The notes under the pieces: generated by a model
The model's input: the letters and a program-made list of their open reading frames with translations, nothing else
Database searches by the model: none
Told to the model about the DNA's origin: nothing
Program-made: the position numbers and the translations under genes
NCBI GenBank assembly: GCA_030593145.1
Contig: JAUVHU010000006.1
Coordinates: 1,121 to 65,120, forward strand
DNA: 64,000 nucleotides
Reading direction: 5' to 3'
From: Desulfobacteraceae bacterium
GTDB lineage: Bacteria; Desulfobacterota; Desulfobacteria; Desulfobacterales; ETH-SRB1
Shown: piece after piece, positions 4,865-58,830 of the stretch
Layout of the letters: each line of letters opens with the position of its first letter
Numbering within the stretch: position 1 is the stretch's first letter

Positions 4865-6646
4865 TTGAAAGCAACCGAACCTCAATATCAGCAGGCGTTG
4901 CCTGAAGAATTTTCCGTCACCACACTTGAAAAAAATTTAGCTGCTTTGGCTACCATCAATGAGAATTTATTTCAGCGTATATGCCTGCCGGTTGATGGTA
5001 CCCATGTCCATTTTCTCAAAAACGGCGAAATTAGCTATCAAATAAACCAAACCCTTTTTCCATTTGTCTTGGACAAAGAAAAGCTGGAAGAGACATTGAA
5101 AGATGTAAATAGTTCGAAAGATATCCTGCTTTTCGGTATTGGACTGGGCGAGCAGCTTAATTATTTGCTCGAACGGTTCACGGAGGTCGGAATCACAGCC
5201 TGGGATCGGGACCCCTGGCTTATTCGCCTGGCGCTGATGCAGAGAGACTACAGTCACCATCTTCGTTCCGGCCGGCTGCAACTGCGTATGGGCGTTGATA
5301 TTTTGGATATCGTTGATATGGCTAAAAACACCCCTGTCGTGATTCATCCCTTGTTACGTTCGTTTTACAAAAATGAGTGGAAATTACTTAAAACCGGCGT
5401 TGGAGAAAAGCGAGCCATTATATGTTCGGGCGGGCTTTTTGTGGACGATGTAAGTAATGCTCTGGAAGGGTTTGGTTATACACTTTACACATTAGACGTA
5501 ACAAGGTTATCTGTTGAAGAAATATCGCTAAATATCAAACGATTCAATCCTCAGGTGGCTTTTGCCGTTAATTATACAAACGGTCTTGCAGAATTGTTCG
5601 AAAGTCACGGCGTAGATCTGATTTGCTGGGAGGTAGATCCTGCCACAGACCACCTTAAGCCGATCAGTACAAGCTCGGATCGTGCCTATGTCTTTACTTA
5701 CCGAGAAGCTAATGTTGAGGAATTTGTCAAGGCCGGGTTTAAGAATGTAGAACATCTTCCCCTTGCTTCTGATACTGAAAAAAGATTGCCGACACAACTT
5801 TCCCAAGAGGAACACGACATCTATGACGCCAAATTGTCTTTTGTTGGTTCGAGCATGACAGAAAATGCGATATCCCTCCGTAAAATCTTTCTTTCACAAT
5901 ACAAGGCTTGTCAGGATGGATCTGCTGATGCGGTGGAAGAGGGAAATCGTCTTTTAGAAGAGATTTTATCCGTGCAGCGGCAAAATTTCTCTGTTTATGT
6001 AATCCCTGATCTTTTAGATAAATATTTTTCCGGCTTCATCAGCTACCTTTTGAAGCTTCCCGGCGCCCATAATCCATTCATCCTGGTTGGTGAAATTGCG
6101 GCAGCGGAAAAGCGGGCTAACTACATTGCAAATCTGGGCAGCCTCGGTGTAAAGGTCTGGGGTGATGATGGGTGGCTGAGTACAGAGCAATTTGGAGTAA
6201 AGTATATGGGGAGCGCCGGACACACATTTGAGATCAACAAGATTTACAGTGCATCCAGCATCAACGTGGATATCAACAGGTTATATCAGATGGATATTAT
6301 ACCGATGCGGATTTTTGATATCATGGCCTGCGGCGGTTTTATTCTGGCCGAATACAGCAAAGAGTTAAGTAACATCTTTGAGATAGGCAAGGAGGTTGAA
6401 ACATACAGCACGTTAGACGAATTGGTCTCAAAAGCGACCTACTATCTTGATCATGAATCCGAAGCATTGGAAATCGCAAAGCGGGGCAGGGGAGCAGTAC
6501 TTAAAAAGCACACGATATCCGGTAGGGTGAAGCATATGCTAAAGGCCTGCGTTAAAGAATGTTCACCGTTTTCCGACGTGCAACCGACAACCGACAACGA
6601 ACAACGGTCAACGGATAACGGCCAACGGCTAACCGATAACGGATAA
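4865..6646 (+). CDS. Maf-N-terminal-like module fused to CgeB/DUF3880-type glycosyltransferase domain
   Basis: The N-terminus parallels the Maf protein at 23761 (LEKNLAAL..INENL vs LEQNLNVL..KDPDL; LLFGIGLGEQLNYLL vs IFMGLGLGYHLDLFF). The C-terminal INVDINR..MRIFDIMACGGFILAEYS..TLDELVSKATYYL is CgeB-like. The last ~20 codons (QPTTDNEQRSTDNGQRLTDNG) are read from a heptamer array. Confidence 0.55.
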   Translation: MKATEPQYQQALPEEFSVTTLEKNLAALATINENLFQRICLPVDGTHVHFLKNGEISYQINQTLFPFVLDKEKLEETLKDVNSSKDILLFGIGLGEQLNYLLERFTEVGITAWDRDPWLIRLALMQRDYSHHLRSGRLQLRMGVDILDIVDMAKNTPVVIHPLLRSFYKNEWKLLKTGVGEKRAIICSGGLFVDDVSNALEGFGYTLYTLDVTRLSVEEISLNIKRFNPQVAFAVNYTNGLAELFESHGVDLICWEVDPATDHLKPISTSSDRAYVFTYREANVEEFVKAGFKNVEHLPLASDTEKRLPTQLSQEEHDIYDAKLSFVGSSMTENAISLRKIFLSQYKACQDGSADAVEEGNRLLEEILSVQRQNFSVYVIPDLLDKYFSGFISYLLKLPGAHNPFILVGEIAAAEKRANYIANLGSLGVKVWGDDGWLSTEQFGVKYMGSAGHTFEINKIYSASSINVDINRLYQMDIIPMRIFDIMACGGFILAEYSKELSNIFEIGKEVETYSTLDELVSKATYYLDHESEALEIAKRGRGAVLKKHTISGRVKHMLKACVKECSPFSDVQPTTDNEQRSTDNGQRLTDNG

Positions 6647-8027: not shown

Positions 8028-9344
8028 ATGAAATACCGAATTCAAAAAGTAAGCGAAAAAATAGAAGTCCCCAGATCGACGATTCGGTTTTGGGAGACGG
8101 AGTTTCCTGAATTAGTCAAGCCCGAAAGAACCAATGGCGGGCAAAGAAGATATTCCGAACAGGATATCAGCAATTTGCAGAAAATCAAAAACCTGCTTCA
8201 TCGTAAAAACAGAACCATTGATCAAGCCAGGATTATTCTTAAACAGGGAAATGCTGACGCAGGCAAGATTGACTGGCAAAATCAATCGATTCTTTTGACC
8301 GGTGGAACAGGTTCTTTTGGAAAGCACTTCTGCAAGGTCATGCTCGAAAAATATCACCCTAAGGTTATAAGAATATACAGCCGCGATGAATTAAAGCAGC
8401 ATGAGATGCGTCAAACATTTGGCGAGGATGTTATAAGATACTTTATCGGGGATGTGAGAGATGGTGACCGTCTGAAGAGAGCTATGGAAGGAATAGATAT
8501 TGTCATTCATGCAGCGGCTCTCAAGCAGGTTCCTTCCTGCGAATATAATCCTTTTGAGGCTGTTAAGACCAATATTTACGGCGCACAAAACGTTATTGAT
8601 GCTGCCATTGATGTAGGTGTCAAAAAAGTAGTTGCTTTAAGCACCGACAAGGCTGTAAATCCGGTCAATCTCTATGGGGCAACTAAGCTCTGCTCGGATA
8701 AGATCTTTATCCAGGGGAATTCCTACTCCGGCTCACGAGGCACACATTTTAGTTGTGTTCGGTACGGAAATGTTATTGGAAGTCGTGGCAGTGTTATCCC
8801 CCTTTTCAGGGAACAGAAAAAAACCGGCAAGATAACCATAACCGATGAACGAATGACAAGGTTCTGGCTTACCCTTGATCAGGCGGTTGAGCTCGTGGTC
8901 AATGCACTTTGTTACATGCAGGGCGGAGAAATCTTCGTGCCCAAGATTCCGAGCATGAAGATAATGGATCTGGCTAAGGCAATAGCCCCGCAATGTGATA
9001 TAGAAGTTATCGGCATAAGGCCGGGAGAAAAGATACACGAGGCTTTAATAACGGAAGAAGATGGGAGAAACACGGTGGCGTATAATGGCATGTATGTCAT
9101 TATGCCCAACAGTTCATGGTGGGAAAGGCAAAATTATAAAACCGGCAAAAAGCTACCCGATGATTTCATCTATGCCAGCGATACCAATGATGAGTGGCTG
9201 AGTGTAGAGGATTTAAAGAAAATCATCTATGAATCTTCCTCGGTTGAAGAAGATCCAGCCTCCAGATTGCTATCGACCATTCATCAGTTAAATGAAAAAG
9301 TTATTTTGAACATGCTAAATTCTGAGGAACGGACAACGAGGTAA
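8028..9344 (+). CDS. pseB: UDP-N-acetylglucosamine 4,6-dehydratase (inverting), PseB/FlaA1/CapD-type, with N-terminal MerR-type HTH extension
   Basis: ILLTGGTGSFGKHF Rossmann motif and ..IYSRDELKQHEM..DVRD..HAAALKQVP..YGATKLCSDK (SDR YxxxK). Residues 1-75 (VPRSTIRFWETEFPELVKPERTNGGQRRYSEQDISNLQKIKNLL) look like a MerR-family HTH. Confidence 0.8.
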   Translation: MKYRIQKVSEKIEVPRSTIRFWETEFPELVKPERTNGGQRRYSEQDISNLQKIKNLLHRKNRTIDQARIILKQGNADAGKIDWQNQSILLTGGTGSFGKHFCKVMLEKYHPKVIRIYSRDELKQHEMRQTFGEDVIRYFIGDVRDGDRLKRAMEGIDIVIHAAALKQVPSCEYNPFEAVKTNIYGAQNVIDAAIDVGVKKVVALSTDKAVNPVNLYGATKLCSDKIFIQGNSYSGSRGTHFSCVRYGNVIGSRGSVIPLFREQKKTGKITITDERMTRFWLTLDQAVELVVNALCYMQGGEIFVPKIPSMKIMDLAKAIAPQCDIEVIGIRPGEKIHEALITEEDGRNTVAYNGMYVIMPNSSWWERQNYKTGKKLPDDFIYASDTNDEWLSVEDLKKIIYESSSVEEDPASRLLSTIHQLNEKVILNMLNSEERTTR

Positions 9345-9411
9345 AGTATGAACAACGGACAACGGTGAACAATGCATAACGGACAACAGACAACAGACAA
9401 CGGACAACGAC
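9326..9411. repeat. 7-nt-period array (ACGGACA family) covering the pseB stop and pseC start
   Basis: gaacgga caacgag .. aacaacggacaacggtgaacaatgcataacggacaacagacaacagacaacggacaacga. Confidence 0.8.
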
Positions 9412-10691
9412 CCTTTATTCCTTATGGTCGTCAACAGATCGACGAAGACGACATACAGGCTGTTGTAGATGTACTTCGCTCCGACTGGCTGACCACAGGC
9501 CCAAAAGTGGGCGAGTTCGAGCAGGCGGTTGCTGATTTTGTGGGAGCCAAAGAAGCCGTAGCAGTTAGTAGCGGAACGGCAGCACTGCATGCAGCCATGT
9601 ACGCCATTGGCATCGAGCCGGGTGACGAAGTGATTGTCCCTCCAACGACTTTTACTGCAACGGCCAATTGTGTTGTCTTCCAAGGGGGAACGCCTGTCTT
9701 TGCAGATGTTGATCCGTGTACATTGCTGATTGATCCTAACGAAGTGGAGGCAAAGATTACTCCGAAGACAAAGGCAATCATAGCAGTGGACTATGCAGGG
9801 CAACCTTGCGATTACGATGCCCTTCGAAGAATCGCCGAACGCCATGACCTGATTCTTGTTGCTGATGCCTGTCATTCCCTTGGTGCGGAATACAAAGGCC
9901 GCAAGGTTGGTTCTCTCGCCGACATGACCGTTTTCAGCTTTCATCCTGTTAAGCACATTACAACCGGCGAAGGAGGAATGATAACAACTGACAATTCGGA
10001 ATTTGCCGAACATATGAGAATGTTTAGAAGTCACGGCATCACTCGCGATCCGAAGCAATTCGCTCCTTCAGAGGAAGTCTCCGCACCCTCTGCCCCAAGC
10101 CCAATACTCCAAGCTCCATGCGCTCTGCCCTTTTACTACGAGATGCAAGATCTTGGTTACAACTACCGTATCACGGACATCCAGTGCGCACTTGGTCTTT
10201 CCCAATTAAAAAAGCTGCCGAAGTTTCTGGAGCGAAGGTGTGAGATAGCTGCTTTATATGACAAAGCCTTAGCGGACATCTCCGGTATAGAACCTCTCGG
10301 GCTTCGCGCCGACGTCTTACCGGCCACGCAAAGCGCTTTGCGCCCTGCGCCTTGCGCCCTGCGCCCTGCTCCAAGCTCCATGCTCTCTGCTCTCTGCTCT
10401 CTGCGTTCAAGTCACAGTTATCACCTCTATGTCGTCAAAGTGGATTGTAAAGCCTCTGGAACCAATCGAAACACCCTATTTCAGTCTTTGCGTGAGAAAG
10501 GTATCGGCGTAAATGTTCATTATATCCCAGTTCATCTTCACCCATATTATCAGAAGCGATTTGGTTATGAAAATGGCCTCTGTACTGTAGCAGAAGAAGC
10601 TTACGAACAGATGCTATCACTCCCCATGTTTCCAGGAATGAGTGATGAAGACATCAAAAATGTTGTTACTGCAGTGAGGGAGACAATATAA
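9372..10691 (+). CDS. pseC: DegT/DnrJ/EryC1-family aminotransferase, PseC-type (UDP-4-amino-4,6-dideoxy-N-acetyl-beta-L-altrosamine transaminase)
   Basis: IPYGRQQIDEDDIQAVVDVLRSDWLTTGPKV, SFHPVKHITTGEGG (PLP lysine) and GYNYRITDIQCALGLSQLKKL. The gene lies directly after pseB. It carries two repeat-derived in-frame insertions. Confidence 0.8.
   Translation: MHNGQQTTDNGQRPFIPYGRQQIDEDDIQAVVDVLRSDWLTTGPKVGEFEQAVADFVGAKEAVAVSSGTAALHAAMYAIGIEPGDEVIVPPTTFTATANCVVFQGGTPVFADVDPCTLLIDPNEVEAKITPKTKAIIAVDYAGQPCDYDALRRIAERHDLILVADACHSLGAEYKGRKVGSLADMTVFSFHPVKHITTGEGGMITTDNSEFAEHMRMFRSHGITRDPKQFAPSEEVSAPSAPSPILQAPCALPFYYEMQDLGYNYRITDIQCALGLSQLKKLPKFLERRCEIAALYDKALADISGIEPLGLRADVLPATQSALRPAPCALRPAPSSMLSALCSLRSSHSYHLYVVKVDCKASGTNRNTLFQSLREKGIGVNVHYIPVHLHPYYQKRFGYENGLCTVAEEAYEQMLSLPMFPGMSDEDIKNVVTAVRETI
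10056..10130. repeat. repeat-derived in-frame insertion 1 inside pseC
   Basis: ..ctccgcaccctctgccccaagcccaatactccaagctccatgcgctctgccc. It encodes FAPSEEVSAPSAPSPILQAPCALP. Confidence 0.6.
10305..10409. repeat. 7-nt-period array inside pseC (in-frame insertion 2)
   Basis: ctttgcg ccctgcg ccttgcg ccctgcg ccctgct ccaagct ccatgct ctctgct ctctgct ctctgcg. This is the reverse-complement flavour of the AGCATAG/AGCTTGG arrays. Confidence 0.8.
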
Positions 10692-23760: not shown

Positions 23761-25719
23761 ATGAAGAAAAATGCTATTCTTGAACAAAATTTAAATGTAT
23801 TGTCCCAGAAAGATCCTGATCTCGCGCGAAGGGTTAGAGAAAGCACAGGAAATGGTAATTATAAAATAATTCGATCAAAAACAGGCTATCCAAACGTGAT
23901 AATTGAGAAAGGATTTGATGCAGAGGCGCTTTATGACAATAGTGACCCCATAGGATATTGTCGTCAATATCTGGAATCACTCAACATTAAATACGCCCCT
24001 ATTGTGATCTTTATGGGTCTGGGGCTTGGGTATCATCTCGATCTATTTTTCAAAGAGTACAGCAAACGGCTCAAAACAGAAGAGATCGTTATCTTCGAAG
24101 AGAATATTGGCCTATTTCGGCTGGCGCTGGAGTTGGGTGATTTCCGTAAAATTATCTCCCATCCCAATATTCACTTTTTTATTGGTGAAGACCCTGAAGC
24201 TGCTTTCCCAAAATTGAGGACTAAAATTCTTATAACTGGAAAAAATTGGATTGTTCTAAGATCTGTTAAAATCATTCCTATTCCTGGGAGTGTTTTTCAG
24301 GCTAATGAATACTACCTAAGAGCACTCAAAACGGCTAAGGATGCCGCTAGGCAAGTAATGATCACGGCTGGGAATGATCCTTTTGATTGCCTGGTTGGCC
24401 TCGAGCACATTTTTGAAAACCTGAGGGATATATTTTCCAACCCAGGTATAAACCTTCTTTCTGGAAGGTTTAAGGGACGGCCAGGAATCTTGGTAGCATC
24501 AGGACCGTCATTGAATAAGAATATGCATCTTCTCGGAGACCTTAGGGCTCGTGCCCTCATTATAAGTTGTGACGCAAGCCTTACTCCTCTCATTAAAAAT
24601 AGAATCCGCCCACATTTGGTAACCTCCCAAGAAAGAACTCCTGGGGTTGAACTCCATTATTCCTGCCTTAATGATTTTGATGGTATCTGTTTTGTTGGAT
24701 GCCCTATCCTAATGCCTGAGGTTTTTGCTGCATTCAAAGGGAAGAAGATCATTGTTTACAGGGCATATTCCCAGTTTGACTGGCTAGAGTGTGAAAAGGG
24801 TTCCCTGATTACAGGTATATCTGTGGCCAATATGGCATTTAAGATTCTTGAGTCATTAGGATGCGACCCTATCATCCTTGTTGGCCAGGACCTTGCCTTT
24901 TCCGAGAATGGGGATACCCACGTTGAGGGCAATGTATATGGAGAGATAAGCAAGGAAGCATTATTGAAAAATCCCACTATTATGCTCGAAGGTAATGACG
25001 GAAGGCACGTTAGGTCTGAGAGGTCGTGGGAGATTATGAAAAATACATACGAGGAGGACGTTGAGGCTTATCAGGGTAAATGTATCAACGCAACAGAGGG
25101 AGGGGTCAGGATTCGAGGTACCGAGGTAATGTCTTTTAATGAGGCAATACAAAAGTATTGCACAGAAGAGTTTTGGCCGGAGTTAATAATAAACGAAATC
25201 TTTTCTGATTTTGAGAAAAAAAATATTGATGTTGAAGCGGAGCTGAAAAGGATCCACACAAAGGCTATAGAAACCCGGAGAACAGTACAGAATACAATCG
25301 ACCAGTTCCTGGAGGCCCTTGAGGAGGCCCGCCTTGCGGAAAAGGAGATTATCCAACCCTTCATTGACAACGGTTCGGCTGTTGAGACTGAAAGACTTGT
25401 GAATATCGAAAAGAAATTCCTTGATCTGAGTAGAACGCTTAACGACCCAGGAGACAGAAAATTGTATGATATTACCGCCCATACCTTACAGCCCTATGAT
25501 ATATGGTTTACCCATGAGCTGAGCTTCCTTAAAGACATTTACACGGATAAGGAGTGCTTGTCAGCGGCAACGGTGCTCAAGATGAAAGAATGGTTCGCTG
25601 TAGTAGGACATCTTCTTGTCTGTACGAGGGATGTTCTGGAGAAGACTGAAAAAAGGCTGGATGAGGAGGTTGGGGGGGTTAGAGGGTTAGAAGGGGAAAG
25701 CATAGAGCATAGAGCTTAG
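23761..25719 (+). CDS. maf: motility accessory factor (Maf; DUF115/MptE-like flagellin nonulosonic-acid transferase)
   Basis: GRPGILVASGPSLNKNM..ALIISCDASLTPLIKNRIRPHLVTSQER is the DUF115 core. It lies next to flagellin and pse genes. The longest ORF starts at 23731 in a repeat array, and the C-terminal GGVRGLEGESIEHRA is read from an array. Confidence 0.75.
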   Translation: MKKNAILEQNLNVLSQKDPDLARRVRESTGNGNYKIIRSKTGYPNVIIEKGFDAEALYDNSDPIGYCRQYLESLNIKYAPIVIFMGLGLGYHLDLFFKEYSKRLKTEEIVIFEENIGLFRLALELGDFRKIISHPNIHFFIGEDPEAAFPKLRTKILITGKNWIVLRSVKIIPIPGSVFQANEYYLRALKTAKDAARQVMITAGNDPFDCLVGLEHIFENLRDIFSNPGINLLSGRFKGRPGILVASGPSLNKNMHLLGDLRARALIISCDASLTPLIKNRIRPHLVTSQERTPGVELHYSCLNDFDGICFVGCPILMPEVFAAFKGKKIIVYRAYSQFDWLECEKGSLITGISVANMAFKILESLGCDPIILVGQDLAFSENGDTHVEGNVYGEISKEALLKNPTIMLEGNDGRHVRSERSWEIMKNTYEEDVEAYQGKCINATEGGVRIRGTEVMSFNEAIQKYCTEEFWPELIINEIFSDFEKKNIDVEAELKRIHTKAIETRRTVQNTIDQFLEALEEARLAEKEIIQPFIDNGSAVETERLVNIEKKFLDLSRTLNDPGDRKLYDITAHTLQPYDIWFTHELSFLKDIYTDKECLSAATVLKMKEWFAVVGHLLVCTRDVLEKTEKRLDEEVGGVRGLEGESIEHRA

Positions 25720-25760
25720 AGGAGCTTAAAACTGAAAGCTCAAAGCAGGTAATAAACCCC
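25668..25760. repeat. 7-nt-period array over the maf stop codon
   Basis: ggttaga gggttag aagggga aagcata gagcata gagctta gaggagc ttaaaac tgaaagc tcaaagc. Confidence 0.75.
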
Positions 25761-25811: not shown

Positions 25812-25846
25812 ACCCCGCTTCTGGAAGATGGAGGCGGGTTTTTTAT
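25812..25846. terminator. rho-independent terminator (bidirectional position between maf and the convergent XRE gene)
   Basis: accccgcttc-tggaagatg-gaggcgggt stem-loop followed by tttttt. It overlaps the XRE stop codon. Confidence 0.65.
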
Positions 25847-26031
25847 GCTAGAAATTCTGCTATAGTTGTGTCAAGCGCTATTGCGATTTTGGAAAGAGTT
25901 TCAATATTGGGATTTGTTTTTCCATTCTCCAATCTGGAGAGATTCGGCCTTTGAATTCCTGTCATTTCTGAAAGTTGAGCCTGCGTTAGCCTTTTTGTTA
26001 TACGCATTGCTTTAACCTTTTTACCAGCCAT
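25843..26031 (-). CDS. XRE-family HTH transcriptional regulator (62 aa)
   Basis: ITKRLTQAQLSEMTGIQRPNLSRLENGKTNPNIETLSKIAIAL is a Cro/C1-type HTH. Confidence 0.8.
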   Translation of the reverse strand: MAGKKVKAMRITKRLTQAQLSEMTGIQRPNLSRLENGKTNPNIETLSKIAIALDTTIAEFLA

Positions 26032-26127
26032 CTTTCCTTTTTGCCGTGACTTTTGTTCTACCTCTTTGGTGTGTCTCGTTTAATTTTTGGAATGTTGGTG
26101 TAATAGGGGATACTTTGTCCGAGTCAA

Positions 26128-26292
26128 TCATGAACTAAACAGCGGAATATTCCTAATTCTAATTCCTGATCCAGTTACGGTTACCATCGCACCCTTCTTG
26201 ACTTGGGATTCAATCTCGGGCCAAATCTTTTTTATGAGCTGTGCCAAAGCTGCTGAACGAGGAAGCCCTTGATCCAGAAGAATACTAATCAA
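26128..26292 (-). pseudogene. internally deleted DUF5615 (PIN-like partner of DUF433) remnant, 54 codons
   Basis: My own translation is LISILLDQGLPRSAALAQLIKKIWPEIESQVKKGAMVTVTGSGIRIRNIPLFSS. It keeps the N-terminal (LLDQGLPRS) and C-terminal (..V.V....IRIR..P) signatures of DUF5615 but lacks the ~60-aa core. The TTG start overlaps the DUF433 stop (TTGA). Confidence 0.4.
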
Positions 26293-26522
26293 GCCGCCTC
26301 CAAAGCAATGTTTTGGTTATCCAAATTCCCGGCGGCGAATTGCAATGCCTGGCGAATGTCTTCTTTTCCCAACTCGGGATACTCAGACCGAAGTTTCTCC
26401 CAATCTGGATAAAGCGCAACGGTTTCTACCACCCTACGTACTGTTAAACGCATATTCCTTACACAAGGCTGACCATTCATGATTTCCGGATTAACGGTGA
26501 TTCTGTCAAATATTGTCCACAT
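26289..26522 (-). CDS. DUF433 domain protein (antitoxin-like)
   Basis: ITVNPEIMNGQPCVRNMRLTVRRVVETV is the DUF433 signature. Confidence 0.7.
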   Translation of the reverse strand: MWTIFDRITVNPEIMNGQPCVRNMRLTVRRVVETVALYPDWEKLRSEYPELGKEDIRQALQFAAGNLDNQNIALEAA

Positions 26523-27033: not shown

Positions 27034-27092
27034 GAACAGAGGTCAGAGGTCAGATATCAGTAACAAATGACCGTTGACAAATGACAACAATT
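27034..27092. repeat. 7-nt-period array in the flagellin leader
   Basis: aacagag gtcagag gtcagat atcagta acaaatg accgttg acaaatg acaacaa. Confidence 0.7.
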
Positions 27093-27119: not shown

Positions 27120-28514
27120 ATGGCATTAAGAATTGTAAATAACCTTGCGGCGTTGAACACCCAGCGTTGGTTGGGTATCGCAGATACCGGGATGAAACAA
27201 TCTCTTGAAAGATTATCATCCGGTTATCGGATCAATAAGGCAGCGGATGATGCTGCTGGTCTGGCTATTTCTCAAGCTTTTAGGGCGAATATAGCCAGCT
27301 TTAAAGTGGCTTCGAGAAATACCTCAGAGGCCGCAGCGCTCTTGCAGGTGGCTGAAGGTGGTATGGACCAGATCGGAAACATGCTTACCCGACTGAAAGA
27401 GCTGGCCACCCAATCTGCTTCGGCAAACGTTGGTTCTTCTGAGCGTGCAAAGATCGACTCCGAAGGTACCGCGTTGCTGAATGAAATTGACCGAATCGCC
27501 AACTCCTCAAAATACGGGAGTACGGCTTTGCTGGACGGAACATTCGGGGCAACCAAAAGCGGTGTATTTGCAGCAGGTGCTAAAGGTGACGGCGTCGTTA
27601 ATACAAACATTGTATACAACTTTACGGCAGCTACAACAATGACCGGCACACTTTCTGATGCTGTTGATGGGACATGGGCATTCAGTTCAGGAGGGGCAAC
27701 GACTAGCCTGACAATTGTGAATAGTTCAGGAACGTTGAAGGAAACGGTTTCTGTAGCTGCTGGTACCATAGTGAGTGGCACCGCTACATTTGAAAACCTG
27801 GGAATGACAATAGCATTCACTGCAGCGATTACTGCTGCTGCTGCTCTAGGTGACGACACACTCAATGTCTACCGTACAGGACTCACCAACATTACGGCAG
27901 AGGGTGCAACTACCGGAACATACACCATAACCGATGCCAATGGTACCGATATTACGTTGGCAAATTCTGCCGGAACTTGGAGCCAGACAGTGTCTCTTTC
28001 ACCAGGTGCTGGTACGGCAAGTTTTAGTGAATTAAGTATCGCATTTGATGTGACTTCAGCTTACGCGGATGAGGAGTTAAGCGGTACAACGATAACAATC
28101 TCATCCACTGGAAGCGCTGGCAATACCTTCCAGATCGGCGCGGAAAATAACACTGACAACCAGATTTCTATTACAGTATCAGGTACAAGAGGTTCCGATC
28201 TTGGCATAAGCAGTCTTTCACTTGACACCGCAGCCAATGCCCAGGCAGCTCTTGATCTGGTCGATACTGCCATCGGTAGTCTTGCAGGGTCAAGAGGTGA
28301 AATCGGCGCTTCCATGAACAGGTTGAGTTATGCTTCTGCGAATCTGGCAACGACCATTGAGAACCAGCAGGCGGCGGAATCTGTTATTCGCGATGTGGAT
28401 ATGGCGGCTGAGATGACGGACTTTACCAAGAACCAGATCCTGCTCCAGGCTGGTACTGCCATGCTTGCACAAGCAAATATGGCGCCGCAGCAGGTGCTGG
28501 CTCTCTTTGGGTAA
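27120..28514 (+). CDS. fliC: flagellin
   Basis: N-terminal MALRIVNNLAALNTQR..LERLSSGYRINKAADDAAGLAISQ and C-terminal ..MTDFTKNQILLQAGTAMLAQANMAPQQVLALFG. The central domain is T/S/G-rich. The RBS is aaggagg. Confidence 0.9.
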   Translation: MALRIVNNLAALNTQRWLGIADTGMKQSLERLSSGYRINKAADDAAGLAISQAFRANIASFKVASRNTSEAAALLQVAEGGMDQIGNMLTRLKELATQSASANVGSSERAKIDSEGTALLNEIDRIANSSKYGSTALLDGTFGATKSGVFAAGAKGDGVVNTNIVYNFTAATTMTGTLSDAVDGTWAFSSGGATTSLTIVNSSGTLKETVSVAAGTIVSGTATFENLGMTIAFTAAITAAAALGDDTLNVYRTGLTNITAEGATTGTYTITDANGTDITLANSAGTWSQTVSLSPGAGTASFSELSIAFDVTSAYADEELSGTTITISSTGSAGNTFQIGAENNTDNQISITVSGTRGSDLGISSLSLDTAANAQAALDLVDTAIGSLAGSRGEIGASMNRLSYASANLATTIENQQAAESVIRDVDMAAEMTDFTKNQILLQAGTAMLAQANMAPQQVLALFG

Positions 28515-28575
28515 GAGCATAGAGCTTAGAGCATAGAGCTTGGGGCTTAGAGAGTAAGGCTCAAAGCTGAAAATA
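28512..28575. repeat. 7-nt-period array starting on the flagellin stop codon
   Basis: taAGAGCATAG AGCTTAG AGCATAG AGCTTGG GGCTTAG AGAGTAA GGCTCAA AGCTGAA. Confidence 0.8.
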
Positions 28576-28589
28576 AACCTTTAAACCAA

Positions 28590-28630
28590 AACCCCGCTTC
28601 TTTACAGGAGCGGGGTTTTTTATTTTTTTT
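28590..28630 (+). terminator. rho-independent terminator after flagellin
   Basis: aaccccgct-tctttacagg-agcggggtt stem followed by a long T-run. Confidence 0.75.
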
Positions 28631-29930: not shown

Positions 29931-29998
29931 TGAGACTTTGAGCGAAGAGCAAAGAGCATGGAGCTCAGAGCGAAAAGCTAAGAGCATTTTTAGCGAAA
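29931..29998. repeat. 7-nt-period array upstream of the AAA ATPase gene
   Basis: gagcgaa gagcaaa gagcatg gagctca gagcgaa aagctaa gagcatt. Confidence 0.75.
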
Positions 29999-30391: not shown

Positions 30392-33300
30392 ATGTCCATC
30401 AGCACAAACCTGATATCCGGCCTTTCAAGTGGTTTTGACTGGCGGAGCATGATCGACCAGTTGATTGCAATAGACCGCGGCAGGGTCGATCTGATCGAGG
30501 GCAGGAAATCTGAATACGAGTCACAGCTTGCTGAATGGCAAAATGTCAACACCATGCTGCTTTCGCTTAAAACAGCTTCAGGAGCTTTGAGCACGGAGAG
30601 CGCCTTTAATGTTTTTAGTTCCAGCACTACATCCAACACAACTACGGCGGTCTCTAGCCTGCTTACCATTTCAACCAGCTCCACGGCCTCTCCTGCACTG
30701 TATAACATCAAGGTAAACAATCTTGCGCAATCTGAAAAGATATCTTCCACGAACTATGCGGCTACAGACACAGCGCTTGGTTTGATCGGCGATATCCTTG
30801 TGTCGGGGAAAGTGGTAAACATCGTATCGACCGACACACTCGCAGATATCAAGGACAAAATTAACGCAGTGAATACGGGTTCGGACCCTTCCAATGTGAC
30901 AGCAAGTATTGTTTCACACTCTTCCACCAATTATCATCTGATCTTAACAAGCGACGAGACAGGCGAAGACGGACTCAATATCTTTGAGGGGGCCTATGAT
31001 AGTGGCGACAACATTCTTGAGGAGATGGGCTTTATCAGCGGTTCCACCACCATCAAGAATACGACCAGCGACGGCGCCAAGAGTGATCTTTTTGACAGTT
31101 CCAGCGGGGCAATCAAGACACTATTAGGATTGACCAGTGCGCCTGGGGCCACGATAGTCAAGATAGGTGGATTAGATGTCAGTATAGACCTTTCGAGCGC
31201 CGCCGAATCGCTCACCACGATCGCACAAAAGATAGATGTCCTTGCGGGCATATCGGCCGAAGTTGTATCTGAAACCGTAAGCGGGGAGACAAAATATCGG
31301 ATAGACATCAGCGGAACCACCTCCTTTGCGGAGAGTGTCGGCGGCAACGGCAACGTCCTCCAGACACTGGGTATTCTTGAGGGGACATACGGGACAGTCG
31401 CGGAGGTACATTCAGGAAGCGTGAATTATGCTTCGGGTGGAGCAGCTGTCGTTGCCGGAACCACTTTTGCAAATGTCTTTACCGGTATACTCCGCGGAGA
31501 TATAGAAAATACGGAGGACATCTCCTCAGACCCTATATCATCTTCAACAACATGGGATGATATTGCTGGTTTCACTTGGGATGTTACTGATGAAATTACG
31601 ATCACAGGGACAGACCACGACGGTGCTCCCGTCAGCGAGACGTATGACCTGGCAGCGAGGGAGACTGAGGCACTTAGCGTTTTCTTAGGCCAATTGGAAA
31701 CATGGTTTGGCGGTTCGGATAAAGTTGATGCATATTTTGACTCTGATGGAAGGCTTATTGTTGAAGATTTACAGTCCGGAAGCAGCCAGATGTCGATTGA
31801 AGTAGATCCGAACGATGTCGGTCTGGACTTCAATACGCCTGATGTCGCCTTCGGCAACAATATTACAGAAGACACCGACACCATCAGCATTACGGGAACA
31901 AGAGGAGACGGAACAAGGATTGGCGACGAGGGAAATAACTATACCCTCACATATACGATTGCTGCCGGTGATGACCTTGCAGACCTTCTGACTAAGATCA
32001 ATAACGCTAGTGATGGCTTTGGCACTGGGCAGACCGCAACGGCCAGCATTTCCGGTGGAAAAATTATAATCACCGACGGCACCGCCGGAAACAGCCAGCT
32101 TTCACTTACTCTTGTTGCTAACAATGAGGGTGGAGGCTCTCTTAATTTCGGCGAGATCTCCATGCTCACCGAGGGTCGCAGCATGCAGGTTGCTGCTGGT
32201 GAGGACGCGGAGATTGTGGTGGACAACGTGACCATAACGAATTCTTCCAACACTATCGAAGACGTTATCGCGGGCGCGACCCTGAATCTTGTGGGAGAAG
32301 ACTCGGACACTACCGTTACTCTCAAGGTAGAGCGGGACCTTGCCTCCATAAAGTCAAAGATCGAGGACATGGTCAGCGCCTATAACTCCATAATGGATTA
32401 TATCAATATCCAGTTTACCTACGACGAGGACACGGAACAGGTAGGCGGTATCCTCTTCGGGGACGGCACACTTTCGACCATCAAGTCAGAACTTATCAAT
32501 ACGGTTACGAGAACAATTACCGGGGCATCCAGCGACTATAACAAGCTGGCCCTTATCGGGATTGCCTTAGACGTGGTGGACACCGACGAAGGAGAATATA
32601 ACAAGCTCAACCTGGTTATCGATGATGATGGCGCTGATGATAATGATCTCATGGATTATCTGAAAACGAATTTCGATGATGTTAAAAAGCTCTTTATTGC
32701 TTCCGGATCTTCTCCTTACTCAAATCTAACATATATAGGACATACGGATGATACCGAGGGAGGAGCATATAATGTCACAATTTCGCAGGCAGCCACGCGG
32801 GGTACAACAACAGGGAGTAATGCCCTTGTTGGGACAATTGCAGTTGCCGAAAAGGTGACCCTCACAGACTTTGACACGGGCAGGGTTGCAATCGTGGATC
32901 TCACAATTGGTATGGACATCAACGATGTGGTCAACGCCATCAATTCGGAGTTTGCCCAGGAATACACGGAGCAACTCACGGGGGCTACTGAAAACGCCGG
33001 TGTCACCTCCTCGACTTTGCTTAACGATGCATTAGTGGGCGGTGAAGATAACGATGTCATCACGTTTTCAGGGATAAAACGAAATGGCATCAGCGTCTCC
33101 GGGAGTTACACAATCAGTGATGCAACCACGGAAACCGTAGGAGACCTCCTGGAGGCCATCGAGGATATGTACGAAGACGGGGTCACGGTTGCCCTGGATG
33201 GTGACGGTAAGATCGTGATTACAAACACGCAGGTAGGGGACAGCAGTCTTTCCTTCAATATAGACACTTCGGCCCTTACCAACCTGGATTTTGGAACGGT

Positions 33301-33895
33301 CAGCACCACGACCGAAGGCCGTTACGCCATGGCCATTACGGCGTCCGAAGGGACGGGTGGTGACGATAATAAGCTTGTCCTGACCCACAACACTTATGGA
33401 ACCGGGCAGCAGGTTGCTACGAAGTCCGAGGATGGGAATGACGACCTGGGATTAAACACTGCCACAAAGGTCTGGGGCGAAAATGTTGCCGGAACTATAA
33501 ACAGCTTGACGGCTACCGGCAGTGGTCAAAACCTGTCGCTGGACAGTGACGGAAACAACGCAGACGGATTGTCTATAAGTTATACCGGCACAAGCACCAT
33601 AGCCGAAACAACCTTTACGCTTACCCTTGGGATGGGGGAGTTGCTGGATCGCAGGCTTGGCTTTATTACCAATACCTCTGACGGATATGTTACATACAAG
33701 AAAACGTCCCTTGGAAACAGCATTGACAGCTTTGAGGATCAGATTGAAAGCATGGAGGCAAGCCTGAACCGCAAAATGGAGACAATGATCAATAAGTTTG
33801 TGGCCATGGAAATGGCTTTGGCCGATATTCAGAACGAGAGTCAATGGCTTATGGCGCAGATCAGCGGTTCATTTTCCGGCTGGGGAAGCTTGTAA
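30392..33895 (+). CDS. fliD: flagellar filament capping protein FliD (hook-associated protein 2), unusually long (1167 aa)
   Basis: N-terminal ISGLSSGFDWRSMIDQLIAIDRGRVDLIEGRKSEYESQLAEWQ and C-terminal SIDSFEDQIESMEASLNRKMETMINKFVAMEMALADIQNESQWL are FliD N/C coiled-coil domains. Confidence 0.85.
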   Translation: MSISTNLISGLSSGFDWRSMIDQLIAIDRGRVDLIEGRKSEYESQLAEWQNVNTMLLSLKTASGALSTESAFNVFSSSTTSNTTTAVSSLLTISTSSTASPALYNIKVNNLAQSEKISSTNYAATDTALGLIGDILVSGKVVNIVSTDTLADIKDKINAVNTGSDPSNVTASIVSHSSTNYHLILTSDETGEDGLNIFEGAYDSGDNILEEMGFISGSTTIKNTTSDGAKSDLFDSSSGAIKTLLGLTSAPGATIVKIGGLDVSIDLSSAAESLTTIAQKIDVLAGISAEVVSETVSGETKYRIDISGTTSFAESVGGNGNVLQTLGILEGTYGTVAEVHSGSVNYASGGAAVVAGTTFANVFTGILRGDIENTEDISSDPISSSTTWDDIAGFTWDVTDEITITGTDHDGAPVSETYDLAARETEALSVFLGQLETWFGGSDKVDAYFDSDGRLIVEDLQSGSSQMSIEVDPNDVGLDFNTPDVAFGNNITEDTDTISITGTRGDGTRIGDEGNNYTLTYTIAAGDDLADLLTKINNASDGFGTGQTATASISGGKIIITDGTAGNSQLSLTLVANNEGGGSLNFGEISMLTEGRSMQVAAGEDAEIVVDNVTITNSSNTIEDVIAGATLNLVGEDSDTTVTLKVERDLASIKSKIEDMVSAYNSIMDYINIQFTYDEDTEQVGGILFGDGTLSTIKSELINTVTRTITGASSDYNKLALIGIALDVVDTDEGEYNKLNLVIDDDGADDNDLMDYLKTNFDDVKKLFIASGSSPYSNLTYIGHTDDTEGGAYNVTISQAATRGTTTGSNALVGTIAVAEKVTLTDFDTGRVAIVDLTIGMDINDVVNAINSEFAQEYTEQLTGATENAGVTSSTLLNDALVGGEDNDVITFSGIKRNGISVSGSYTISDATTETVGDLLEAIEDMYEDGVTVALDGDGKIVITNTQVGDSSLSFNIDTSALTNLDFGTVSTTTEGRYAMAITASEGTGGDDNKLVLTHNTYGTGQQVATKSEDGNDDLGLNTATKVWGENVAGTINSLTATGSGQNLSLDSDGNNADGLSISYTGTSTIAETTFTLTLGMGELLDRRLGFITNTSDGYVTYKKTSLGNSIDSFEDQIESMEASLNRKMETMINKFVAMEMALADIQNESQWLMAQISGSFSGWGSL

Positions 33896-33995
33896 GTAGA
33901 GCATAGAGCAGAAGGGCAGAAGATTAGAGGGTCAGAAGGTGAGAAGGTGAGAAGGTGAGAGGGTGAGAGAGGTTAGAAGGTGAGAGAAGGAGAAT
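33893..33995. repeat. 7-nt-period array starting on the fliD stop codon (left arm of the four-helix-bundle cassette)
   Basis: taagtagagcatagagcagaagggcagaagattagagg gtcagaa ggtgaga aggtgag aaggtga gagggtg agagagg ttagaag gtgagag. Confidence 0.8.
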
Positions 33996-33997
33996 GT

Positions 33998-34381
33998 TTG
34001 GAGAGAAAAAAGAGCATACGTCATTTTCGGGATCTTGAAGTTTACAGGCGGGCTTTTGATGCGGCAATGCAGATATTTGAAGTTACGAAAAAGTTTCCTC
34101 CGGAAGAAAGGTTCTCCATGGTAGATCAAATTCGAAGGTCGTCGCGTTCTGTATGTGCCAACTTGTCGGAAGGATGGCGGAAAAGGCGTTATTTGGCTGT
34201 CTTCAAAAATAAAATTACAGATTCAATGCAGGAAGCGTCCGAGACACAGTGCTGGTTGGAATTCTGTCTTGCCTGTCGCTACATCAAGCAAGATGTTTTC
34301 GATAAACTTGATAATGAATATGAGCAATTGATTGCAATGTTAAATTCCATGGAAATGAACGCTGCAAAATTCTGTTACTAA
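33998..34381 (+). CDS. four-helix-bundle protein (23S rRNA intervening-sequence protein family)
   Basis: IRHFRDLEVYRRAFDAAMQIFEVTKKFPPEERFSMVDQIRRSSRSVCANLSEGW is the family signature. The likely start is TTG 33998 after the gaaggag RBS. The longest ORF starts at 33980. Confidence 0.8.
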   Translation: MERKKSIRHFRDLEVYRRAFDAAMQIFEVTKKFPPEERFSMVDQIRRSSRSVCANLSEGWRKRRYLAVFKNKITDSMQEASETQCWLEFCLACRYIKQDVFDKLDNEYEQLIAMLNSMEMNAAKFCY

Positions 34382-34473
34382 CCTTCTAACCTTCTGATTT
34401 TCTAACTTTCTGCTTTTGAGCCATGCTTAATTCCATGAAGGTCGGAGGATTAGAAGATTAGAGGATTAAAGGA
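34379..34473. repeat. 7-nt-period arrays after the four-helix-bundle gene (right arm, inverted, plus a GGATTAG array)
   Basis: taaccttctaaccttctgattttctaactttctgcttttgagc is the reverse complement of the GGTTAGAAGG flavour. It is followed by ggtcgga ggattag aagatta gaggatt aaaggaa. Confidence 0.8.
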
Positions 34474-34535
34474 ATATTTACGACTCGATTAGTTGTGAGC
34501 GAAGTGAACTAAATTAACAAGGAGGATATGCTCTT

Positions 34536-40975: not shown

Positions 40976-41473
40976 ATGATTATCAAGACCATAGGTATAG
41001 ATCCAGGTCTATCTGCAACAGGTATTGGTATTGTCAGGGGAAGAGGATTAAAGATAGATGGCTGTTCCTATGGCAGCATTAATACCTCAAAAAATATTTC
41101 ATTGCCGGCCCGCCTTAATCAAATCTTTTCCAAGCTTCTTAAAATTTTAGAGGATGAAAAACCGGACCTTATGATTGTAGAGGATATATTTTCTCTGACT
41201 AAGTATCCAAAAGCCGGTATAACATTAGGGAAAGTTACAGGTGTAATTCTCCTTGCCGGATGCCATGTTAATGTGCCTGTTACAGAAGTCCCTGTTCGTG
41301 AAGCCAAACAGGTTTTGACAGGAAACGGTAACGCAAGTAAGATGCAGCTTGAAAAGGCGGTCAGGCATTTATTAAACTTGTCAGATCCCATTAGCCCTGA
41401 CCATGCTTCAGATGCATTAGGCCTTGCTCTTATTGGCCTTTATCGATATGAAGGGATTGAGTTAAGGAATTAA
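40976..41473 (+). CDS. ruvC: crossover junction endodeoxyribonuclease RuvC
   Basis: MIIKTIGIDPGLSATGIGIV..DLMIVEDIF..ASDALGLAL. The longest ORF (40898) runs through an upstream repeat. Confidence 0.85.
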   Translation: MIIKTIGIDPGLSATGIGIVRGRGLKIDGCSYGSINTSKNISLPARLNQIFSKLLKILEDEKPDLMIVEDIFSLTKYPKAGITLGKVTGVILLAGCHVNVPVTEVPVREAKQVLTGNGNASKMQLEKAVRHLLNLSDPISPDHASDALGLALIGLYRYEGIELRN

Positions 41474-41500
41474 AGGATTGAGGGATTGGGGAATTAAAAT
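41466..41500. repeat. short 7-nt-period array over the ruvC stop codon
   Basis: aaggatt gagggat tggggaa ttaaaat. Confidence 0.55.
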
Positions 41501-56559: not shown

Positions 56560-56630
56560 GGATTAGAGATCGGAGGTCAGGGGTCGGAGGTCAGAAGGTG
56601 AGAGAAGGTGAGAAGGGGAGAAAAAAGAGA
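56557..56630. repeat. 7-nt-period array starting on the permease stop codon
   Basis: tagggattagagat cggaggt caggggt cggaggt cagaagg tgagaga aggtgag aagggga. Confidence 0.8.
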
Positions 56631-58721: not shown

Positions 58722-58830
58722 GTCAGAGGTCGGAACGGGGGGCAGAACTCAGAAGCCAGAGGTCGGAAGTCAGAGGTCGGAGGTCAGAAGTCAGAGATCA
58801 GAAGTCAGAGGTCGGAGATTGGGAAGGAAA
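58719..58830. repeat. longest 7-nt-period array (unit CRGARNT, ~15 units) starting on the ABC ATPase stop codon
   Basis: gtcagag gtcggaa cgggggg cagaact cagaagc cagaggt cggaagt cagaggt cggaggt cagaagt cagagat cagaagt cagaggt cggagat tgggaag. Confidence 0.9.

Follow-up and report, generated by a model that had tools for sequence, protein, structure and literature searches.

Heptanucleotide-repeat DNA in the reading frame of pseC at two recurrent sites in a sulfate reducer related to Eth-SRB1/Seep-SRB1a

Tandem arrays of 7-nucleotide (nt) units, known since 1990 from cyanobacteria and since 2015 from giant sulfur bacteria, have been described as lying essentially between genes, and to our knowledge neither their function nor their spread has been established. 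The cyanobacterial STRR heptamers were reportedly described in Calothrix/Nostoc by Mazel et al. in 1990, and Elhai et al. are said to have found in 2008 that small dispersed repeats (SDR) are nested in the tandem heptameric repeats of Nostoc punctiforme. Short repeats are also the basis of the phase-variable simple-sequence contingency loci of Haemophilus, Neisseria and the flagellin-glycosylation genes of Campylobacter, and the intervening sequences (IVS) of 23S rRNA genes in Leptospira and other bacteria carry an open reading frame (ORF) of the PF05635 family. The TAACTGA heptamer forms direct repeats in marine Beggiatoaceae, and also in cyanobacteria and some Bacteroidetes (MacGregor, 2015; PMC4679880); G-rich heptamers with the units GGGGAYT and GGGAATC occur in Nostoc and Xanthomonas (PMC4692102); and in Borg elements nucleotide tandem repeats create amino-acid tandem repeats (Schoelmerich et al., 2023; PMC9879509). 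Here we describe a stretch of 64,000 nt, hereafter the window, from a metagenome-assembled genome of a Desulfobacteraceae bacterium (GCA_030593145.1, contig JAUVHU010000006.1, positions 1,121 to 65,120 of the forward strand), in which genome-wide heptamer DNA has probably entered pseC, an enzyme gene of pseudaminic-acid synthesis, at two permissive loops and is there translated as disordered filler.

A preliminary description of the window had proposed that pseC carries two in-frame insertions made of the same heptamer DNA that lies between its genes, and alignment scores as well as 20-mer counts bear this out. At the first site the loop of the window protein measures 36 amino acids (aa), a net gain of about 18 aa over the clade minimum of 18 aa, and at the second a stretch of 40 aa replaces the usual turn of 9 aa, a gain of 31 aa; measured against the shortest clade members, these gains agree with the excess of about 40-50 aa over the family that had been estimated. 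The block at site 1 has the coordinates originally assigned to it (10056-10130) but holds 25 codons, not 24. At site 2 the insertion itself stands, whereas its limits, when set against the insertion-free relative L026 and other relatives, shift from 10305-10409 to 10320-10412, positions 10305-10319 encoding RADVL, which is conserved family sequence. Site 2 was rightly seen as a 7-nt array: TRF reports period-7 arrays at 10339-10369 (4.4 copies, 91%) and 10381-10404 (3.4 copies, 100%), and lag-7 self-identity over 10305-10409 is 0.66 compared with about 0.25 at other lags. Block 1 is weakly periodic, with a lag-7 self-identity of 0.40, and is not reported by TRF. Both blocks keep the reading frame, as had been claimed, the ORF being open with 0 stops, and they would be translated into peptides of which SALRPAPCALRPAPSSMLSALCSLR is a predicted example.

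The kinship of the two blocks with the intergenic arrays is visible at the DNA level. The blocks are alike over 21 of 22 nt (CTCCAAGCTCCATGC[G/T]CTCTGC). Aligned with the arrays at 28507-28559 and 29939-29990 after reverse complementation, block 1 reaches scores of 24-38 and block 2 scores of 39-41 (shuffles 12 +/- 2 in either case); the best block-1 score, 38, is reached against the reverse complement of 28507-28559 (shuffles 12.5 +/- 2.4). Taken together, the similarity of both blocks to the reverse-complemented AGAGCNN arrays at 25699, 28507 and 29939 lies at z > 10. The core of block 2, already likened to the reverse complement of an array at 29941-29990, aligns at 10367-10398 with the reverse complement of 29939-29990 at 27 of 32 positions. 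When up to 3 mismatches are allowed, the 20-mer CCAAGCTCCATGCKCTCTGC has 6 matches in the window where 0.01 would be expected, at 10109, 10371 and 10378 on the forward strand, all within pseC, and at 25700, 28524 and 29949 on the reverse strand, all within intergenic arrays. Judged by their sequence, the pseC blocks are heptamer DNA of the AGAGCNN family that is read on the strand opposite to that of the intergenic arrays. All 3 forward frames are closed by stops in the AGAGCNN arrays that start at 25699 and 28507, and 2-3 frames are closed in intergenic arrays of the same family; no stop is present in any of the three coding-strand frames of blocks 1 and 2. At the place where intergenic arrays have GCGCATAG, the coding "forward arms" have GCGCATGG/GCGCAAAG.

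Such arrays are widespread in the window and are placed with a clear bias. Eight are strongly periodic at lag 7, compared with 0-1 at lags 5, 6 and 9 and with 0 in shuffles, and whereas 76% of the window lies deep (>60 nt) within ORFs, this holds for only 1 of 12 strongly periodic arrays (P about 1e-6). They adjoin or overlap the starts or stops of genes at 6646/6663, 9344/9372, 25719, 28514, 33895, 56559 and 58721. The unit families that coexist here are CAACGGA, AGAGCNN, TCAGAGG (at 58741-58826) and the octamer AGAAGGTG.

Comparison with homologues shows that the insertions are lineage-specific and not conserved family sequence, as had been surmised. The wider family was sampled with 105 full-length sequences that share at most 50% identity in any pair. 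Site 2, bounded by GIEPL and YHLY, measures exactly 9 aa in 92 of them, and site 1, bounded by HGITR and GYNYR, most often measures 18-20 aa (the mode) and ranges over 6-47 aa; Helicobacter pylori PseC (2fn6, 375 aa) has 9 aa at site 2 and about 11 aa at site 1. The relatives of the window protein come from metagenome-assembled genomes of Desulfobacterales. In a set of 119 close homologues (61-82% identity, 382-622 aa) drawn from JGI, ENA, NCBI and Logan assemblies, nearly all internal length variation falls at sites 1 (18-72 aa) and 2 (9-75 aa), so the variation in length that was to be looked for among orthologues is present at both. A site-2 insertion is carried in frame by 86 of the 119 and is missing from the other 33. 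The reading frame is kept in all 12 clade loci read as DNA and in all 119 homologues; a frame-blind scan of metagenome DNA for flank, gap and flank yielded 2 loci only, both in frame, and is underpowered. Period-7 arrays occur in every clade locus (the window, L002, L004, L024, L025 and L027-L031), compared with 1 of 19 pseC loci of other taxa. A query of concatenated repeat peptides against a set of 5.8 billion proteins, made in search of other host families, returned 64 candidates, none of them significant.

The inserted peptides can be traced to more than one repeat family. SAPSAPS and LHAPCSM correspond to the reverse complement of AGAGCNN, LTSDLRPLTSD to that of TCAGAGG, and NGQRTTDNGQR and FTVHRSPFT to CAACGGA and its complement, respectively, and the repeat origin was verified on DNA in L002, L024, L025, L027, L028, L029 and L034. 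Inserted lengths at site 2 fall into the classes 26, 33, 40, 47, 54, 61 and 75 aa and 36, 43, 50, 57 and 64 aa, and the chi-square of these lengths is 59.7 for modulo 7 compared with 10.9-26.2 for moduli 5, 6, 8 and 9. A step of 7 aa equals 21 nt or three units, which is the smallest change of a 7-nt array that preserves the frame.

Beyond the gain and loss of units, the alleles differ in orientation and in what is nested within them. Site 2 of the nearest relatives, L024 and L025, is made of two arms, the first one forward (GCGCAAA GCACAAG GCGCATG...) and the second one reverse (...TCCAAGC TCTCTGC). Positions 10334-10364 of the window match the reverse complement of L024 at 27 of 31 positions with a score of 42 (shuffles 12.7 +/- 2.4), the same-strand score being 17. 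On these scores, part of the window allele was inverted in frame, or switched strands, relative to L024/L025, and most of the forward arm was lost by it, with the palindrome at 10327-10342 left behind; one lineage thus has AQSTRRMAQSEDR at the place in site 2 where another has SALRPAPCALRPAP. In L028 and L029, site 2 contains a nested palindromic element with the ends CCCCGTGGAAT...ATTCCACTGGGG and a variable interior, which is read through in frame as PVEFTEGDSAAYSTGA / VESLPNGIRSPFHRGEGHSTGA, and in L027 it contains a nested GC-rich hairpin (SPPAWPERAGSRWRAGA) that is likewise translated in frame; peptides of such nested elements recur in many homologues. Arrays also lie in frame within two other genes of L028 (1830-1875 and 3486-3545), adding 7 aa (LCAKRYA) to NeuB/PseI and the peptide SIVNRQSSI to a PseF-glycosyltransferase fusion, and in-frame invasion is therefore not confined to pseC. 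At site 1, a small sample of 72 nt, the DNA of the window is 95.8% identical to that of L024 (91.7% at third positions), whereas the flanking coding DNA is 88.6% identical (74.3% at third positions), and the window, L024 and L025 have kept the peptide PSEEVSAPSAPSP.LQAPCAL in common.

Despite its insertions, PseC appears to be a functional enzyme. The 439-aa protein scores 484.3 bits against NCBIfam TIGR03588, above the equivalog cutoff of 423.5, with the alignment broken in two at site 2, and it matches Pfam PF01041 (DegT_DnrJ_EryC1) at 5e-133. The catalytic lysine that binds pyridoxal phosphate (PLP), Lys194, is present in FSFHPVKHIT and aligns with K188 of ArnB, the ArnB alignments being interrupted at both insertion places. 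K194, D165, H168, N264 and R266 are invariant across 70 homologues, and all are kept in the window protein, which would be expected to act as transaminase on UDP-2-acetamido-2,6-dideoxy-beta-L-arabino-hexos-4-ulose. The flanks of the insertions are highly conserved, the neighbouring genes are intact, and the Logan assembly of SRR18936876 has identical DNA through all three pseC arrays, so that two assemblers are concordant. From the open frame, the score above the PseC cutoff, the invariant residues, the conserved flanks and the intact neighbours, pseC is judged to be alive, and on this sequence evidence it is a bona fide, intact enzyme gene.

The structural models are consistent with insertions in loops, as had been proposed. 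An AlphaFold model of the window protein, built from a 70-sequence alignment, has a mean predicted local distance difference test (pLDDT) score of 74.5, and values below 50 are found at residues 222-263 and 315-346, which are the two insertions. The core retains fold type I, with a TMt of 0.88 to ArnB (4oca) and of 0.84 to H. pylori PseC (2fn6). In the model of an insertion-free control, P0109, site 2 is a confident short turn (pLDDT 70-88) and the site-1 loop is already poorly defined. In these models, site 1 is a naturally variable loop, and site 2 is a normally tight turn that in the window protein makes a predicted disordered excursion. The mRNA of sites 1 and 2 and of site 2 of L024 folds no better than shuffled sequence (z about -0.1 to -0.2), and a hairpin or attenuator role of the window allele was dropped, as folding is at shuffle level.

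Table 1. Positions in the window of pseC, its repeat-derived parts and related features (aa, amino acids; nt, nucleotides).
Feature	Position	Strand	Description
pseC	9372..10691	+	439 aa, intact; UDP-4-amino-4,6-dideoxy-N-acetyl-beta-L-altrosamine transaminase by TIGR03588
Site-1 insertion block (QFAPSEEVSAPSAPSPILQAPCALP)	10056..10130	+	Degenerate AGAGCNN-family heptamers on the complementary strand; 25 codons (QFAPSEEV...CALP)
20-mer CCAAGCTCCATGCGCTCTGC	10109..10128	+	Common to site 2 (10371-10390) and, on the other strand, three intergenic arrays
Site-2 insertion (PATQSALRPAPCALRPAPSSMLSALCSLRSS)	10320..10412	+	93 nt, 31 codons (PATQSA...SLRSS), about 13 heptamer units
Palindrome CGCAAAGC|GCTTTGCG	10327..10342	.	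Perfect, 16 nt; junction of flipped unit orientation
Inverted segment	10334..10364	+	31 nt; reverse complement of the L024/L025 forward arm at the same place
Longest perfect run	10381..10404	+	TGCTCTC x 3.4; TRF 100% matches
Recombination breakpoint	10419..10440	+	Within the YHLYVV codons, directly past the 3' end of the site-2 array; informative sites switch
CAACGGA-family heptamer array	9350..9410	+	Bridges the pseB stop and the pseC start; TRF 9352-9409, lag-7 scan 9350-9426
pseB	8028..9344	+	TIGR03589, 523 bits; pathway partner directly upstream of pseC; last codons enter the CAACGGA array
AGCATAG/AGCTTAG array	25699..25721	+	Overlaps the maf stop codon (25719); same family as the pseC blocks, opposite strand
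AGAGCAT/AGAGCTT array	28507..28559	+	Begins at the flagellin stop codon (28514); same family
GAGCNAA array	29939..29990	+	Intergenic, upstream of fliD; array named in the preliminary description

A third repeat-derived part of PseC had been overlooked. Residues 1-13 (MHNGQQTTDNGQR), together with the only plausible start codon (9372), fall within the CAACGGA array at 9350-9410, and the PseC N-termini of relatives read MNNGQRTTDNGQRPF or simply M-IPYG. Each of 200 shuffles is more structured than the CA-rich leader (9340-9425; z = +2.1), no obvious Shine-Dalgarno sequence lies upstream of 9372, and the leader may serve as an unstructured translation-initiation region. In relatives, the junction between pseB and pseC is a landing place for small genes, namely 23S_rRNA_IVP, PIN and PemK. 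Many PseC homologues are called at 540-622 aa and carry an N-terminal PIN (PF01850) or PemK (PF02452) domain (P0014, P0020, P0032, P0039, P0042-P0046 and others) that is joined to PseC via a repeat-derived linker, and these are probably upstream toxin genes read through an open array and not true fusions.

Apart from its insertions, the window pseC appears as a mosaic whose joint lies at the edge of the site-2 array. From 8300 to 10400 the window is 90-97% identical to L025 and 60-70% to L026, whereas from 10407 to about 11700, covering the 3' end of pseC, the aldo-keto reductase gene and the start of the GNAT gene, it is 80-94% identical to L026 and 55-65% to L025. The final 36 nt of the site-2 array plus CACAGT are identical to L024, and the informative sites become L026-type within about 20 nt past 10419. 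Rate-normalised max-chi-square breakpoints were computed for 6670 protein pairs, of which 6 reach at least 18; 5 of these 6, representing four independent pairs, break at site 2, a clustering that is suggestive at the level of protein alignments. Pairs with discordant N- and C-terminal parts that break at site 2 are P0028/P0060, P0041/P0053 and P0080/P0104, and L004 is a further chimera of this kind.

The arrays are furthermore associated with genes of the 23S_rRNA_IVP family (PF05635). In the window, one such gene (2e-31) lies at 33980-34381 between fliD and fliS, with octamer arrays in inverted arrangement on its two sides, AGAAGGTG at 33903-33993 and CTAACCTT at 34369-34422. The arms are complementary over 36 nt (81%) in the window, 24 nt (92%) in L024 (2600-2956), 51 nt (73%) in L032 (3526-3882) and 22 nt (95%) in a fragment, L033. 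Inverted arrays, of octamers in the window and of heptamers in L024, L032 and L033, thus surround all four IVP genes examined, all of them near pseC or fliD, and the repeat families differ between loci. For homologues that start with MQKDNQFSKVLKIDAER..., an IVP gene upstream was predicted, and this held at both new loci. In addition, the forward and reverse arms of site 2 match the upstream and downstream flanks of IVP genes in the same polarity with scores of 31-44 and 21-31, respectively (shuffles 13 +/- 2). The two-arm layout applies to IVP flanks, to sites 1 and 2 of relatives and to some pseC leaders. Eight intergenic arrays of the window were scanned for inverted repeats without a match, and the idea of a palindromic, two-armed build common to every array was rejected on that ground; most intergenic arrays of the window are one-armed.

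We consider it likely that these observations reflect translated filler. Pieces of dispersed AGAGCNN heptanucleotide DNA, which usually sits at gene ends, would have entered the pseC reading frame at two loops, and the translation products would be disordered excursions, rich in Ser, Ala, Pro, Leu and Cys, of an otherwise intact PseC. At both sites this DNA evolves fast: units are gained and lost, one repeat family gives way to another, sub-arrays are inverted and small palindromic elements become inserted, with slippage or strand-switching as the presumed generators of change. Selection would act as a filter for translatability only, letting lengths of 3n, stop-free strands and unit variants survive, and since the total length must be a multiple of 3, lengths would be quantised at 21 nt (3 units, 7 aa); the insertions would make no contribution to catalysis. 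Several points weigh against this account. Tolerance does not by itself account for repeated hits at two particular sites while other surface loops are spared, and site 2, to judge from the P0109 model, is usually a tight turn of 9 aa that is modelled with confidence. The high DNA conservation at site 1 could reflect constraint at the nucleotide level or recent gene conversion, and the breakpoint adjoining site 2 suggests that the array may be more than a passenger. Moreover, the 119 homologues were gathered as intact ORFs, so that frameshifted alleles would escape, and short-read metagenome assemblies can misstate the copy number of repeats. A pseudogene, in which the invasion of repeats destroys the gene, or an artefact of mis-assembled repeat reads is a further candidate, given that repeats are hard to assemble and that the source is a metagenome-assembled genome; with the ORF open, the score above the curated PseC cutoff, the invariant residues kept, the gene neighbours intact, an identical Logan assembly and both sites occupied in dozens of independent samples and assemblies (JGI, ENA, NCBI, Logan), we regard it as very improbable. 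The related suggestion that pseC is being inactivated finds no support, in view of the open frame without stops, Lys194 and the other invariant residues, and the 86 of 119 homologues with an in-frame site-2 insertion. An intein, intron or otherwise excised sequence was rejected, as frame and stop freedom are kept in 86 inserted alleles, 31 aa is far too short for an intein and, for an excised RNA, no Rfam match was found and folding is at shuffle level.

The explanation that competes most seriously with translated filler starts from the arrays as DNA. They would form the inverted ends of an IVS-like cassette that carries a 23S_rRNA_IVP gene (for a four-helix-bundle, Avd-like protein) as its cargo, the site-2 insertion of the L024/L025 type would be a cargo-less copy that landed in frame, and the shared arrays would act as portable homology or fragile sites through which lineages exchange the 3' part of pseC along with the glycan-tailoring genes downstream of it. 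This would account for the inverted arrays with locus-specific repeat families around all four IVP genes, for the successful prediction at both loci, for the matching polarity of site-2 arms and IVP flanks, and for the mosaic joint at the array edge together with the further discordant pairs that break at site 2. However, it must be taken with caution, since so few repeat families exist in all that similarity between arms is expected anyway, since most intergenic arrays of the window are one-armed, since no transposase, integrase or target-site duplication was seen, and since the IVP sample is four genes from the vicinity of pseC or fliD. Breakpoints at repeats in metagenome contigs can also be assembly chimeras, and the P0080/P0104 pair and L026 either break at site 2 or lack an array there; as one breakpoint pair has no array at this place, recombination at site 2 does not strictly need one. 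We therefore hold this explanation to be possible for the locus but rather unlikely, while noting that it is partly complementary to translated filler; its extension, in which the arrays of the whole Eth-SRB1/Seep-SRB1a-related lineage are inverted ends of mobile cassettes with IVP cargo and the pseC sites are cargo-less copies that then became glycan-diversifying recombination junctions, is somewhat more doubtful still. A contingency locus, in which slipped-strand changes of 7 nt switch pseudaminic-acid synthesis and flagellin glycosylation off and on, comes to mind because the unit length is not a multiple of 3, because pseC lies in a flagellin-glycosylation island with maf, neuB, flagellin and fliD genes, the Campylobacter/Helicobacter counterparts of which are a classic home of phase-variable genes, and because there is a perfect run of TGCTCTC x 3.4 and the unit number changes over evolutionary time. 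Yet the arrays are degenerate (74-91% matching), and the longest perfect run of 3.4 units is far below known phase-variable tracts; block 1 is almost aperiodic, all alleles seen are in frame (in a protein set biased to intact ORFs and in a frame-blind scan of 2 loci), and the 7-aa quantisation implies that selection removes out-of-frame states, which makes such a switch improbable. The chances are comparably slim that the loops were exapted, having gained a function as a disordered interaction or tethering segment or as a modification site, and are maintained for it. The persistence of insertions at both sites in most of the clade would fit, as would the site-1 peptide PSEEVSAPSAPSP.LQAPCAL kept in the window, L024 and L025 with DNA conserved above its flanks, and Borg tandem repeats have been proposed to make functional disordered regions (PMC9879509). 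The peptides, however, are not conserved over the clade, unrelated repeat families of very different composition replace each other, about a quarter of the close homologues (33 of 119) do without a site-2 insertion, and inversion turns AQSTRRMAQSEDR into SALRPAPCALRPAP at the same place, which suggests that the sequence itself is unimportant.

The setting of pseC is a flagellin-glycosylation island with genes for PseB, GNAT, a class-III aminotransferase, a cytidylyltransferase (CTP-transferase), NeuB/PseI, Maf, flagellin and FliD; downstream of pseC, in the mosaic stretch, an aldo-keto reductase gene is followed by a GNAT gene. Eth-SRB1 and Seep-SRB1a, to which the host of the window is related, are partners of alkane-oxidising archaea. 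A cyanobacterial origin of the window, which the STRR-like appearance of the arrays had suggested, was rejected: TolB of the window is 91% identical to TolB of Desulfobacteraceae bacterium Eth-SRB1, and the PseC relatives belong to Desulfobacterales. The Eth-SRB1 genus and Seep-SRB1a form one family within the Desulfobacterales (PMC10553843). PseB of the window has an N-terminal MerR-type helix-turn-helix (HTH) domain (aa 3-71, MerR/HspR-like matches) fused to the dehydratase, a fusion that is kept in L024, L025, L027 and L032 and absent from L026. FliD (30392-33895) is unusually long, at 1167 aa, with its FliD_N and FliD_C domains far apart.

Other features were seen around the intergenic arrays. 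A terminator-like hairpin (AAAACCCCGCTTCT / AGGAGCGGGGTTTT, then T's) at 28588-28619 lies about 30 nt past the flagellin array, which places this array within the 3' untranslated region of the flagellin gene. In the interval between maf and flagellin, the reverse strand of 25843-26522 encodes an XRE-type HTH protein (61 aa), a DUF433 protein (76 aa) and a 53-aa partner; these genes are flanked by the arrays at 25699-25721 and 27037-27078 and have the look of a toxin-antitoxin cassette. Period-8 arrays (AGAAGGTG, GAGGATTA and similar) stand beside those of period 7 at 33903-33993, 34369-34479, 41452-41495 and 56588-56622, the one at 41452-41495 overlapping the junction of two ORFs. Scans of the window for Rfam families, tRNAs, promoters and terminators returned nothing relevant, and there was no Rfam match in it.

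What is new here is the presence of such a repeat system in a seep sulfate reducer related to Eth-SRB1/Seep-SRB1a, the location of arrays inside a conserved enzyme at two recurrent hot spots, their remodelling, through units gained or lost, inversions and nested insertions, under what would be a filter to stay translatable, and their position both at a recombination junction within an island of surface-glycan genes and on either side of 23S_rRNA_IVP genes. Full-text searches of the literature found no account of heptamer arrays in Desulfobacterales or of an association between IVP genes and arrays, which is absence of evidence only. The pseC hot spots provide a natural, alignable series of about 90 alleles from which the mutational rules of the arrays can be read, and the link with IVP genes offers a concrete clue, open to testing, to a trans-acting partner. 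Many PF05635 paralogues are present in cyanobacteria, Beggiatoaceae and Bacteroidetes, and the cassette explanation, if true and general, would offer a first handle on the unexplained heptamer arrays of these groups. There are practical consequences as well: annotation pipelines and hidden Markov model cutoffs split or lengthen genes that bear arrays, and linkers derived from repeats fuse neighbouring ORFs, as in the PIN-PseC and PemK-PseC calls, which can make surveys of domain architecture misleading.

Compared with contingency loci, the pseC arrays share a repeat unit that is not a multiple of three inside a surface-glycan gene and a copy number that varies between lineages, but they differ in having no long perfect tracts, no out-of-frame alleles among those seen and length steps that preserve the frame. 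As in 23S rRNA intervening sequences, a PF05635 gene lies between pairable inverted sequences; here, however, the candidate cassettes lie between protein-coding genes and their arms are heptamer or octamer arrays. The small hairpin elements inside the site-2 arrays of L027, L028 and L029 recall the SDR reported to be nested in Nostoc arrays, with the difference that those of the relatives are read through in frame, and none is nested in the window allele.

The TAACTGA repeats are similar in that they are dispersed 7-nt arrays, mostly within a few nucleotides of gene starts or stops, of which one orientation has stops in three frames, often supplying the stop of the upstream gene, and only the other orientation is found within ORFs (PMC4679880). 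They differ in unit sequence, several unit families coexisting here, and in host, which here is a sulfate reducer of the Desulfobacterales and thus of a different phylum; dimers of TAACTGA, CCCCAGT, TTGGTCA and CAACAGT were looked for in the window and none was found. Moreover, in-ORF repeats of Beggiatoa lie almost entirely at protein termini or in hypothetical proteins, whereas those described here are internal to a conserved enzyme and recur across its orthologues. With the STRR and G-rich heptamers, the arrays share an over-representation between genes and occasional inverted arrangements, but the window has no STRR1-3 dimers and its units do not form G4 structures, and the papers on those heptamers describe no in-frame hot spots in conserved enzymes. 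The closest parallel within coding sequence is with the repeats of Borg elements, which also evolve fast, never break the frame, create new disordered regions (disorder being predicted in our case) and occupy similar places in homologues (PMC9879509). In Borgs, the in-ORF units are always divisible by three, perfect and unique to their locus, and Cys is avoided; in pseC, by contrast, the unit is 7 nt, so that the frame is kept only per three units, and the arrays are degenerate, shared with intergenic DNA and encode Cys.

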